Positions 8,975 to 63,374 of a DNA stretch of 64,000 nt are shown here, one piece after another. The notes under the pieces were generated by a model. The model saw only the letters and a program-made list of their open reading frames with translations. It was not told the origin of the DNA and searched no databases. The translations under genes and the position numbers were made by a program. The stretch comes from Octopus vulgaris (taxonomy: Eukaryota), in contig OX597835.1 of the NCBI GenBank assembly GCA_951406725.2, forward strand, positions 12,152,001-12,216,000, read 5' to 3'. Each line of letters starts with the position of its first letter. The first letter of the stretch is position 1.

Positions 8975-9192
8975 ACTATATCGCCATGTTGATTCGCTAG
9001 CTTCTGCACGCATTTTTTTTCTCTCCTTGTTTCTTTCCGTGTTTCTTTTCTGTGTATCTTTCTGTTGAAGAGCGTAGGCTCGAAACGTAAAAGACTTGTT
9101 TTATTTATATTCCTGAGCGCCATACTAATACAATTGTTTGTTTGTATTCCACCTGCCTTCGTCTTTTGTTTATTTTCATAAAGCTTCCCGTT
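8975..9192 (+). mobile_element. hammerhead-bearing module between (TA)n tracts (Penelope-like pLTR/retrozyme-type)
   Basis: Pyrimidine-rich leader, hammerhead motif at 9057-9094, and a U-rich tail running into (TA)n. Confidence 0.7.
9057..9094 (+). ncRNA. minimal type-I hammerhead ribozyme, A6U core variant
   Basis: TCTTT-CTGTTGA-A-GAGC(GTAG)GCTC-GAAA-CG-TA-AAAGA. Stems I and II pair perfectly and stem III is the ACGT palindrome. Confidence 0.7.
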
Positions 9193-10239
9193 ATATATAT
9201 ATATATATATATATATATATATATATATGAATTAAATAGAAATTCAATTGATTCCTTAGTTTGTTGTTCTCTCTCCTTCTCTATCTCACTTTCTCTCTCT
9301 ATGTATTATATATACATATATATATATATATATATATATATATTATTGTTTGTGTGTGTGTATGTATACATACATATATATACATGTATATATTCATATG
9401 TATATATTCATATATACATACACATATATACATACATATATATGTGTGTGTGTGTGTGTGTGTGTGTAAACGTACAGATATGTACATATACGACGGTAGG
9501 GCCTAACGGAGGACCTACTGAAGCAATCACCTGAAGACGTGTGATAATGATTACACGACATCTCACCAATGTATTAAAGGTGTAAAAACGTGTCGGAACA
9601 ATTGTACTGATTTCAAATAAAGAATATTGTTCATCCATTTTCATCGGTTATCTATTTAGATAAACTCTACGGATACTATGGAATTCCTGGTATACAGCCA
9701 GTGGCAAGAGCATTTCCACTGTATAACGACATCAGGTAGCCAATAGCAGTGGACGAGCCTTGCGTAGCATAGTACAAGCTTTTTACCTAAATCTTATTTA
9801 ACTACACACACACACACACACATACACACATATGTATGTATATATGTATATGTTTATATATATATATATATATATATATATATATATATATATATATATA
9901 TATATACATATGTATATATGTATATGGATATATGTATATGTTTATATATATATATATATATATATATATATATATATATATATATATATACATATATACA
10001 TATATACATATATATATACATATATATTTATATATACAGACATACGTTTATAAACAAGTATGTATATACACACATAAGTATATATATATATATAATATGT
10101 GTGTATATATATGCTTATATATATATATATATATATATGATATGCGTGTATATATATATATATATATATATATATATATATATATGCATCCAGAACTAAT
10201 TGAAATTTCAAACTGTCGTTCATATTTCTCGATTACTAA

Positions 10240-11603
10240 ATAAACAAACATTGCATTGTGTGTTTGTGTGTGTGGGAAAGAGAGAGATAGAGAGACAGAC
10301 AGACAGACAGACAGACAGACAGACAGACAGACAGAGAGATCAGTTGTTTTCATATTCCAGAATATTCCAGATTCTGAGCAGCCATTCAGTCAATGATTTG
10401 AAAACACATGTTTGAAAACACACGATACAAACGACAATTCAATTCCAAACAGTGACGCACTCATCGCCCACTTGAAAGTTCTGTGTGATTGTAAACACTG
10501 AACACGAGCAAGTTGCCAGCAATATATTCCTGCATTTCTCTACACTTTCAAATAGCAAAACTGTTATTAAATCTTGTTATTTTCTTTCTGAAATAATTTT
10601 ACGTAAGAAAGAAATCAACACTGTGTAAATATTTCCATATATTTCAATACATGGATATCGCTTTTAATATGAGTTACATAAGCAATGCGTCAACCAAAAA
10701 TCAATATCTATTTGACAATATTTTTAATAAATAAATATTTCTAATAAATATGATTGAATAACAGAATTTTAAAATACAATGTTACGTAGCTTTTCTAAAT
10801 TTAGGACTACACACTTTATTAAGCTAGCATGGTGAGATAGATAGATAGATAGATAGATAGATAGATAGATAGATAGATAGATAGATAGATAGATAGATAG
10901 ATAGATAGATAGATAGATAGATATAATTATATATATATATATATATGTAAGTGATCTACTTCTAGCATATGGCTGTCCACATTTAGCCCTTTAAATACAC
11001 ACACACACACACACACACACACACACACACACACACACACACACATAAGGCGGCGAGCTGGCAGAAACGTTAGCACGCCGGGCGAAATGCGTAGCCGTAT
11101 TTCGTCTGTCGTTACGTTCCGAGTTCAAATTCCGCCGAGGTCGACTTTGCCTTTCATCCTTTCGGGGTCGATAAATTAAGTACCAGTTACGCACTGGGGT
11201 CGATATAATCGACTTAATCCGTTTGTCTGTCCTTGTTTGTCCCGTCTGTGTTTAGCCCCTTGTGGGTAGTAAAGAAATATATATATATATATATATATAT
11301 ATATATATATATATATATATATATATGCATGCATACATACATATAAATATATACATACACCTACATACACATATAGAGTTGTCTGTGCGTGTTTCTGTGT
11401 GTCTGTTTTCTCGTATATATGTTTCAACCGAAACAAACATTGCATTGTGTGTTTGTGTGTGTGGGAAAGAGAGAGATAGAGAGACAGACAGACAGACAGA
11501 CAGACAGACAGACAGACAGACAGAGAGATCAGTTGTTTTCATATTCCAGAATATTCCAGATTCTGAGCAGCCATTCAGTCAATGATTTGAAAACACATGT
11601 TTG
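10240..11603. repeat. local near-identical duplication of ~174 bp (10240-10413 and 11431-11603)
   Basis: AAACAAACATTGCATTG...(GACA)n...GATTTGAAAACACATGTTTG is present twice. Confidence 0.92.
11049..11278 (+). mobile_element. family-A SINE (Meta/Sauria-like central domain)
   Basis: Head GGCGGCGAGCTGGCAGAAACGTTAGC, B box GAGTTCAAATTCC, and core GCCTTTCATCCTTTCGGGGTCGATAAATTAAGTACC. Confidence 0.92.
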
Positions 11604-60519: not shown

Positions 60520-61780
60520 TTGGTTTGGCAAGAAAGTTATTTCGCTTTTTGCAAATCGATAGTTACGATTTTTATAATGACTTTTGTCAATGTTGTGATT
60601 TTTTCCCTCTTGACATTTGATAGCCGTTACTTTTAGCTTACTTTAGAAGCAAATTGCGTAATTTTGTTTACAGCTGTTAGTTCAGTGTCTATTTTAACAT
60701 GGAATGCAAAAACGAACATGTTCACAATATTCTACATTTTTATTTCCGCAAAGACAGAGAAAGCGGCTGAGGTTCAGAAAAGAGAAATGTGAAGTTTATG
60801 GTATTGATTACTTAATAGAACGCATAAGTCAGAAATGGCTTTTAAAATTCCTCTCTGGAGATTTTTCACTCAAGGATGAACAATGTTCTGGTTCATCGAC
60901 AAAAGTTGATGACCGAATCAAAGCCATAATTGAAACTGCTTGTCATATAACTGTACGAGAGATTGCAGAAAGGTTAAATTTATCACACACAATTGAAAAT
61001 TACTTAAAATGCCTTGGATTCGTTAAGAAGTTCGATATTTACGCTCCGCATAAATTGAAGGCGATTCACTTTACACAACACATCAACATTTGCGATATGC
61101 ATCTCTTACGCAATGAAATCGACCTTTTTTTAATCGAATCATCACTGGTGATGAAAAAGGGATTGTCTACAATAACAGCAATCGAAAACGATCATACAAG
61201 TATAATGAACCAGCAGAAACTACATCGAAAGCTGAATTGCATTTAAAAAAGGTCATGCTGTCAATTTGGTGACATCATAAAGCTGTTGTGCATTTTGAGC
61301 TGCTTCTAAGGAACCAAACAATCAGTTCAGATGTTTACTGTCAACAACTAATGAAACTGGAGGAAGCTATCAAAGAAAAAACAGCCAGAATTGGCAAATC
61401 GTAAAGGAATCGTGTTCCGCCATGACAACGCTAGACCACACACGTCTTTGTAAACTCGTGAAACATTACTGGACCTTGATCTTGAACATTACTAGCCCTG
61501 ATCTTGCACCATCAGATTACCAGTTATTTTGAAGTTTACAAAATTCCTTGAATGCTGAAACTTTCAACAATGATTATGACCTGAAATTACTCTTGCTTCA
61601 GTTTTTGGCTGATAAGGACCAGAAGTTCTATGAGTGCGGAATCATGAAGTTGCCAGAAAAATGGCAAGAGATCATCGGACGAAATGGAAAATATATAATT
61701 GATTAAAGTTCATTCTTTGTATGAAAATAATTACTTTTATTTCGCACTAAAAAACAGAAATTACTTTCTTGCCAACCCAA
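60520..61780 (+). mobile_element. full-length decayed mariner (DD34D), 1261 bp, TA TSD
   Basis: TIRs TTGGTTTGGCAAGAAAGTTATTTC / GAAATTACTTTCTTGCCAACCCAA. Motifs TGDEK, HDNARPH and SPDLAPSDYQLF are present, with frameshifts and stops. Confidence 0.95.
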
Positions 61781-63316
61781 TATATACCTCCGGAAAATTT
61801 CATTGAAAAATAAGCATTTTTAAGAAAATTACGAGAACACAAATTAAGAAGTGGCACACACCTTTGGTTATGTATTGTTATCTCCCTGCATACATTATAT
61901 ATGACTCATCTCAAATCTTTCATAGCACATCAATTCATAAAAATAGTTTTAACATCAGCAACAGCCACAACCATTCAGGCAGAAGGATGGAACTTATTCT
62001 TTCACCAGCATGGGGTTAGTTTCTGACAAATGACGTCTACTAGATGATAACTTAACTATAAATAAAATATATCATTATTGATATGTTGATATGTTAACAG
62101 AAAGTCCATCTCTCAGATGTAACATCATTTTCGTGCGCCTGCATATTGAAAGAAAAAAATATGTTTTTAATACACAACGTCCCTGAGCTTTAAATAAGAT
62201 TTTATCGTCAGAAATATAGTCCAAGATGACCTGACAATTCGGATTTTCGTTCCTTGAATCATAATAATAAGAAGAATTACATACATTACCGACCACAGTT
62301 GATTTCAATTAGATTATTTGGTGTTTGTAATACAGAGAAATTTAATAAAATCGGTGCGAATCTTCTCGGTAAAATTAACGTGGCAAACATTTTACCCTTC
62401 CGCTAGTCCCCTTTATAGAATCCAATTTCTTCATATGAATACACACACACACACACACACACACGATATATAAATATATATATATATATATATATATATA
62501 TATATATATATATATATATATATATATATATATAATAGAAATATTAAAATTACTAAGTCTCTCTTGGAGCTAATCAGCGACAGCTTTAGTCTTATATTTA
62601 TAAGACTGCCATATAAGTATGGCGATAACTATATATATATATATATATATATATATATGCGTGTGTGTGTGTGTATATATATATATATATATATATATAT
62701 ATATATATATATATATATATATATATATATGTATATATATATATATGTATATGTGTGTGTGTGTGTATGCGCATATATATTTACATACATACATACACAT
62801 GCACATATACATATATATATATATATAAATGATTTTGTTTTGCGTGACAATTTCAAATGTATCTCATAGAGCCTTTTTAGTTTATCTTCGCCTTTTTCTT
62901 TCCTCTCTATTATACAATAATCATAGAAGTCAATATCTCTTTGCGTTTAAGATTTCGATCGCTATTCAGCATTTCTTCTTTACTCAGACGTAATTAGAGT
63001 TATAAATAAGATCAATGTACAAAATGTATCTATACAGCACGAAACTCATCCCTATGGCGAATCATGTCCCAACTTGTAGCGATTAATAAGATATAAATAA
63101 CATTTGAACATATTAAAGTTCAAGATATTTCTCTTAAAATCGTTATTAAATAGAATGGTTGTATACTGTCAATCTAACAAGAACGTGATAGTAGGGAGTA
63201 CACCACCGCTGTATAGCCCTAGGAAGCATCGAACGCCTCCTGATGGCTTTGACACATTTTTCCCTGTGTCCTTATATACATATACGAAGGGGAGACAAAC
63301 ACCCCCGGCTGCCGAA

Positions 63317-63374
63317 ACTGCATCTAGGGACACGTGTTTCAGGATCGTTGTCCTTCATCGGCCTAAGACACAGT
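63317..63374 (-). ncRNA. type-I hammerhead ribozyme, U4C variant, all stems intact
   Basis: Minus strand ACTGTGTC.TAGG-CCGATGA-AGGA(CAACGA)TCCT-GAAA-CACGTG-TC-CCTA-GATGCAGT. Confidence 0.8.

Follow-up and report, generated by a model that had tools for sequence, protein, structure and literature searches.

Hammerhead ribozyme motifs in seven multicopy repeat families of Octopus vulgaris: Penelope-linked, gene-less and decayed members in a 64-kb window

The window described here is a stretch of 64,000 nucleotides (nt) of Octopus vulgaris (assembly GCA_951406725.2, contig OX597835.1, positions 12,152,001 to 12,216,000, forward strand), for which an earlier inspection of the letters alone, hereafter the sequence-only reading, had claimed eight type-I hammerhead ribozyme motifs. 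With a probability of about 0.85 these motifs are hammerheads of seven multicopy families, three of which lie downstream of Penelope-type reverse transcriptase (RT) and endonuclease genes in their longer copies, three are gene-less and one, the decayed family D, is unassignable. The gene-less units are likely to borrow the enzymes of Penelope-like elements (PLEs). Hammerheads in PLE ends, a stem III of the dimer type and (TA)n targets are established, and the families are new members, not a new system; what they add is the scale, a core variant with U at position 6 (U6) and a family, B, that targets (TA)n although it has no Cys linker.

Each of the eight motifs was confirmed, lying about 45 nt or less from its first placement and having the stem III sequence given for it. 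A strict type-I descriptor was used (core [CU][UC]G[AU]NGA, GAAA, a self-pairing stem III, H17 and a stem I of at least 4 base pairs); the position numbering agrees with PMC7151607. Three of the eight window copies pass this descriptor (9057, 13389 and 63317). Motif 53428 has one stem III mismatch and was accepted by an earlier, looser scan that tolerates such a mismatch. Four copies are damaged, namely 33131 (G12A at 33156, and a deletion), 50092 (stem I broken), 53889 (G12A at 53929) and 47712 (U16.1C), and in the families of all four the majority letters are canonical. The looser scan missed 9057 because it allowed neither U6 nor the unpaired base after A9.

The core CUGANGA...GAAA...UH with stems I and II is found in the majority sequences of families B, D, E, F and G, and that of family C has the type-I core except for C4. 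Stem III is a perfect palindrome in the majority sequences of A, B, C, E, F and G, and the D majority is decayed at CpG; cofolding predicts that stem III pairs between two molecules in families C and F. An Rfam scan of the window gave no hammerhead family among the matches listed (150 of 266), which were driven by microsatellites. The window is rich in microsatellites and no tandem-repeat annotation covers any hammerhead core; the modules are ordinary interspersed repeats, contrary to the expectation that annotation would mask them as low complexity.

Table 1. Hammerhead-bearing features of the window (core: position of C3)
Feature	Motif	Positions	Strand	Core	Description
Family A	9057	8977..9191	+		5'-truncated 3' end of Neptune/Nematis-type PLE with (TA)n on both sides; median identity with other copies 99%
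Family A hammerhead	9057	9057..9094	+	9062	minimal type-I, U6 variant; core 9062-9068, G12 at 9082, stem III ACGU; predicted cleavage after 9089
Family B	13389	13360..13521	+	13404	3' stub of Hydra-type PLE; canonical core; (TA)n on both sides; predicted cleavage after 13476
Family D copy 1	33131	33057..33244	+	33136	old, decayed; G12A; deletion took the 3' strand of stem I
Family G	47712	47504..47976	+	47715	1.1 units of ORF-less repeat of ~430 nt; U16.1C; (TA)n on both sides; ~42-nt terminal redundancy, one hammerhead
Family D copy 2	50092	50007..50154	-	50123	old, decayed; stem I broken; E 9e-21 to D profile
Family E	53428	53311..53722	+	53435	3' region of older Hydra-type PLE and adjoining family sequence; long stem II, one stem III mismatch
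Family F	53889	53751..54131	+	53893	1.1 units of ORF-less repeat of ~350 nt; G12A; (TA)n at 3' end
Family C	63317	63149..63365	-	63361	truncated copy of ORF-less repeat of ~360 nt; family-wide C4; without (TA)n here

The motifs had been called unrelated. They are not, because 33131 and 50092 match one family D profile (E 4e-30 and 9e-21) and family D cross-matches the clade of 9057 (family A) with E values down to 2e-7; by sequence comparison the eight motifs represent seven families in six DNA-level groups. The claim that many multicopy ribozyme-bearing families are present was borne out, the family of every motif being multicopy. In the assembly searched (2.8 Gb, 227 contigs) the candidate copies number at least 473 for A, 1,798 for B, 1,740 for C, 556 for E, 1,399 for F and 1,028 for G, of which only 40 per family were scored; family D gave 27 matches, several of them merely low-complexity. 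Copies of families A, B, C and G share 98-99% identity and are young; identity is about 85% in E and F and 70-80% in D. Families E and F adjoin at window positions 53311-54131, about 30 nt apart, and nested or clustered PLE-type insertions were also seen at loci L030, L112, L152, L184 and L270.

A link to PLE open reading frames (ORFs) for RT and GIY-YIG endonuclease was found for families A, B and E, and none is attributable to C, F, G or D. In family A, PLE protein remnants lie upstream on the same strand in 11 of 25 loci. Longer copies (L187, L197, L201, L205, L206) carry RT remnants, a CX4CxxC linker and a GIY-YIG of CCHH type; the Pfam matches to GIY-YIG (E 0.003) and RVT_1 (E 0.17) both miss the curated cut-off. 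A CX2-5CxxC linker and a C-terminal CCHH GIY-YIG are common to Neptune and Nematis PLEs (PMC8557442), and by these motifs family A is classed as the putative 3' stub of a Neptune/Nematis-type PLE. It also agrees with the minimal Neptune/Nematis hammerheads of Cervera and De la Pena (2014, PMC4209133) in its linker and endonuclease type, a stem I of 4-5 base pairs, the unpaired base after A9, a palindromic CG at 15.2-16.2 and mostly single, truncated motifs. One contig of run X16 joins the 3' end of module A to its 5' part (window 9015-9171), which could be a short A unit in tandem or permuted form.

Upstream PLE protein was found in 9 of 30 family B loci, where a frameshifted RT-endonuclease ORF ends about 580 nt before the ribozyme. 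This ORF (L178-L181) has RWL and DKT motifs, lacks CCHH and carries CxxC and CxH around E/N, in agreement with the diagnosis of the Hydra clade by a GIY-YIG without CCHH, RWK-like and DKT motifs, CxxC and CxH; that clade also has a CxCX5C linker (PMC8557442). ESM Atlas neighbours of the protein score 0.95-0.96, one set having GIY-YIG on 11% of its members. The CxCX5C linker is absent from 3 of 3 long copies; therefore B is labelled Hydra-type and not a certain member of Hydra. At the place of the Hydra Cys linker the ORF at L178:2982-5634 has an Asn-rich insert, and at L181:5673-6338 (minus strand) an ankyrin-repeat ORF fragment lies upstream of the family B insertion. Family E has a CxCx5C linker (L121, L134) and a GIY-YIG remnant, with PLE protein in 5 of 20 loci; only its endonuclease region was seen, 35-42% identical to that of B. 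A tblastn search of the window with the A and B proteins found no PLE ORF remnant.

Hydra-clade PLEs (Craig et al. 2021, PMC8557442), which include the octopus element Hydra-1_Obim, share with B and E the GIY-YIG without CCHH, the RWK-like, DKT and CxxC/CxH motifs, a type-I hammerhead of canonical sequence close to the 3' end and a preference for (TA)n, into which nearly all of them insert. Compared with the Hydra-1_oBim motif, the hammerheads of B and E differ in sequence and have a longer stem II. Family B further differs from the clade in ending at (TA)n in 20 of 30 loci yet having no CxCX5C linker.

By their short ORF-less units with one type-I hammerhead, families C, F and G resemble non-LTR (long terminal repeat) retrozymes, for which ORF-less units of 350-430 nt with one type-I hammerhead, tandem copies as in G, and mussel units of 350-390 bp are described (PMC7229834; bioRxiv 10.64898/2026.07.22.740005). 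Direct repeats have a period of 360 nt in 11 of 30 C loci, 350 nt in 10 of 20 F loci and 430 nt in 15 of 20 G loci, and inverted pieces occur in 12/30, 5/20 and 6/20 loci, respectively. Family G forms tandem dimers at L163 and L176; two full monomers were not found among the 30 C or 20 F loci. In contrast to retrozymes, which form long arrays, most copies comprise 1.1-1.3 units, lie scattered in (TA)n and have inverted pieces as PLEs do. A private variant is shared between terminal repeats in the window copy of G (both repeats) and at L176 (two of three), which could fit a circle or a homogenised tandem. The terminal redundancy speaks faintly for circles, because the ends of the other G and C copies differ by unshared changes.

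The core of 9057 reads CUGUUGA, with U instead of the canonical A at position 6, a feature that the sequence-only reading did not remark on. When the other positions of a 30-nt pattern are held constant, the genome contains 14,944 exact matches with U6 and 158 with A6; the A6 matches are distributed over all four N7 bases, as post-insertion mutations would be. For comparison with unselected DNA, 80 stretches of 10 kb (800 kb) were picked at round coordinates. In 19 copies from this sample and the window copy, U6 is invariant, N7 is U/A/C/G in 7/5/5/3 and H17 is A/U/C in 13/5/2; the sample copies have a median pairwise identity of 78% over 150 nt and were picked with the A profile, which biases them to U6. 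G17 occurs in 121 of the 14,944 U6 matches, and the clade has no G17 subfamily. In four public runs with four organism labels the summed contig depth rises to a several-fold peak across 9060-9091. Diverged relatives in these runs drop out of the alignment at 9058 and at 9097; between these points only N7 varies at 10% or more; the remainder of the U6 hammerhead is kept as a conserved island. A core register shifted by 3 nt was rejected because it places the four-way variable base at position 4 and gives a poor stem II. A sister family, which shares its stem II with A, has an A6 and C4 core in 8 sample copies (L221, L251, L264, L265, L267, L271, L277, L278); it is very abundant, has a (TA)n end and dominates the canonical ACGT-type matches listed.

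The U6 clade most likely represents a still-selected, slowed and protein-assisted ribozyme, and the sequence pattern somewhat favours retained cleavage, attenuated or gated. It speaks against catalysis that A6C lowers activity by orders of magnitude in Mg2+, though not in Mn2+ (PMC7151607; PMC3088659). The natural core variants A6C and U4C described there are comparable to family A in that one normally invariant base is changed and the rest of the core kept; A6C belongs to one phage motif, whereas A6U is carried by a retrotransposon clade of at least 14,944 copies. The natural U4C variant has its counterpart in family C, which carries U4C family-wide. A bolder version, that this natural A6U hammerhead ranks among the genome's most plentiful ribozyme lineages and is deliberately gated in a genome of about 10^5 hammerheads, is held tentatively. 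The monomer would be folded off by pairing of U6, and dimerisation, the element's protein or a metal (Mn2+) would turn it on; U6 would then be fixed in old and young Penelope subfamilies and under four organism labels with the catalytic constraints still obeyed. No report of a natural A6U hammerhead clade was found in the literature searched, which did not cover the PLE-variant survey of Lunse et al., where U6 could be described.

A ribozyme that is catalytically dead, and kept as a protein-binding or RNA-folding signal or merely hitchhiking, is the strongest alternative for this clade, a possible explanation that we nevertheless hold to be the less probable. The strong loss of Mg2+ activity on changes of A6, shown for A6C (PMC3088659, PMC7151607), would fit it, and so would the predicted inactive hairpin, which U6 lengthens. 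Insertion by a lizard PLE in vitro needs no cleavage, and Naiad PLEs thrive lacking canonical hammerheads (PMC11167929, PMC8557442). Against a dead ribozyme, the variation obeys catalytic rules, N7 being any base, H17 being A, U or C in 20 of 20 copies and G17 being confined to the 121 matches above; moreover, diverged relatives match only within 9058-9097, where just N7 varies at 10% or more. Two results weigh against retained cleavage: covariation in the U6 clade is not above that in shuffles (61-111 of 500), and the predicted lowest-energy monomer of family A pairs U4-N7 with the stem III strand in an inactive fold.

The modules had been described as mostly associated with (TA)n. Within the window only four of eight touch it, 9057, 13389 and 47712 on both sides and 53889 on its 3' side, and 63317, 53428, 33131 and 50092 are not bounded by it. 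Across the genome the association stands for six families and fails for D: among loci that are best matches to the window copies, 3' junctions lie at (TA)4 or longer in 25/30 loci of A, 20/30 of B, 17/30 of C, 13/20 of E, 11/20 of F and 19/20 of G, or 55-95% compared with 4.3% of random positions. In the unselected sample (TA)5 is found within 150 nt downstream of 20 of 28 ACGT-clade copies, one of which (L268) has a misread core, and upstream of 13, with a background of 15%. A SINE-like (short interspersed element) repeat has TA within 130 nt in 6 of its 112 matches of the sample, a control weakened by partial matches. Each family ends at two to four fixed 3' points, which resemble the "tail" of PLEs (PMC11167929).

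Instead of being the landing site, (TA)n could be a tail added by RT slippage at the 3' end. At 3' junctions TA is indeed commoner than at 5' junctions (25 against 14 of 30 loci in A, 20 against 6 of 30 in B, 17 against 4 of 30 in C and 19 against 8 of 20 in G), and the 3' ends coincide with short TA-like words in the element's own sequence; 5' junctions, however, are often internal owing to inverted pieces. The window copies of A, B and G have TA on both sides, each side having a background of only 4.3%. Locus L048, a family A copy flanked by (TAGA)n on both sides, and L040, which ends in (TATC)n, indicate that the flank follows the target, and a slippage tail is unlikely. The proposal of the sequence-only reading that self-complementary (TA)n serves as a shared landing site found support as to landing; self-complementarity is not required, because L048 sits inside (TAGA)n.

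The preferred reading, seven families with PLE enzymes acting in cis or borrowed, would work as follows. The GIY-YIG endonuclease would nick AT-rich or (TA)n DNA and reverse transcription would begin internally, at a small number of points lying 45-235 nt 3' of the ribozyme, as suggested by the PLE literature, where nicking of AT-rich DNA by GIY-YIG, internal RT initiation and protein-assisted ribozyme cleavage are described (PMC11167929). Frequent 5' truncation on insertion into (TA)n would leave short stubs, almost all of them with the ribozyme, and this may explain the high motif density. Through their palindromic stem III, two motifs would pair and cleave multimeric transcripts into single units. 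Dimers of minimal hammerheads cleave weakly (PMC4209133, PMC6765202), and dimeric cleavage would probably be assisted by the element's protein. Units of C, F and G would be mobilised in trans, probably by forming circles around which copying runs for slightly more than one turn.

The anatomy on which this reading stands is directly visible in family membership, in the upstream ORFs of A, B and E, in the terminal redundancy and the tandem or inverted copies of C, F and G, and in the (TA)n 3' ends. Several points weigh against it. Cleavage, transcript ends and circles are predictions from the letters here, and ribozyme mutants of the lizard PLE leave insertion in vitro unimpaired (PMC11167929). 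Within 1.5-kb flanks an attributable PLE ORF was found in 1 of 30 C loci, likely that of a neighbouring element, and in 0 of 20 F and 0 of 20 G loci, so that the link of these families to PLE enzymes is inferred. A Pfam scan of family B found no RT or GIY-YIG family. Family D gave no ORF in 26 loci and (TA) at 0 of 10 scorable 3' junctions, and some of the TA runs counted for E (at least 5 of 13) and F (at least 2 of 11) lie inside the element.

In the unselected sample the strict descriptor found 30 motifs, or 34 when a 3-base-pair stem I was permitted; ten shuffles gave 0-2 and the complement gave 0. In the window it found three (9062, 13404 and 63361), where 50 block shuffles gave a mean of at most 0.04 and a maximum of 1. 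The density is above chance in both, and direct counts over the genome gave 18,638 canonical short-stem ACGT-type matches, stems unchecked, with 20 for the reversed pattern, and the 14,944 U6-pattern matches with 0 for the reversed-pattern control. Chance matches in AT-rich, repeat-rich DNA, for which only the failure of the four damaged window copies speaks, are a negligible explanation in view of these figures and the canonical family majorities. Instead of about one motif per 8 kb, as had been estimated, intact-looking motifs occur about once per 25 kb of the unselected sample. Roughly extrapolated this is 0.8-1.2 x 10^5 intact-looking motifs per genome, a rough total because 7 of the 30 motifs come from one array (L211) and small chromosomes were over-sampled; the direct counts (18,638 and 14,944) set a floor.

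This array (L211:2300-4550; contig C1, 20.0 Mb) is a further retrozyme-like family with tandem units of about 359 nt and 7 identical canonical hammerheads (stem III ACCGGU), two of which are inverted relative to the other five. At least six more hammerhead families that are absent from the window were seen at L220, L246, L251, L253, L267, L273, L275, L277 and L282, several of them as inverted pairs.

For most animals 2,000-9,000 motifs are reported, far fewer than the roughly 10^5 obtained here by extrapolation, which comes near the 126,247 of the axolotl. Minimal hammerheads, mostly single, are reported in thousands per animal genome (PMC4209133); family A differs from that account in having tens of thousands of copies, compared with the 2,000-9,000 per genome given there, and in carrying U6 in every sampled subfamily, which a CUGANGA descriptor misses. 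The U6 clade shows in this way that standard hammerhead descriptors undercount. Among octopus repeats, an annotation of 2026 counts 31 Penelope-like families as recently active, and its main text makes no mention of ribozymes (PMC13282606). What hammerheads do for PLEs is still debated in the field, and a clade in which an "invariant" base is changed in tens of thousands of copies, with the rest of the motif kept, offers a natural experiment on the need for cleavage and on its gating. Family B, whose (TA)n targeting does without the Cys linker to which such targeting has been ascribed, makes the linker hypothesis testable.

Other features of the window are two tandem copies of a 184-nt piece at 37476-37816, belonging to the abundant SINE-like repeat with 112 sample matches. 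ORF remnants that by eye resemble Tc1/mariner transposases lie at 60698-61243 (plus strand) and 46667-47032 (minus strand), and others resembling long interspersed element (LINE) fragments, likewise by eye, at 33793-34434 (plus strand) and 27510-27944 (minus strand).

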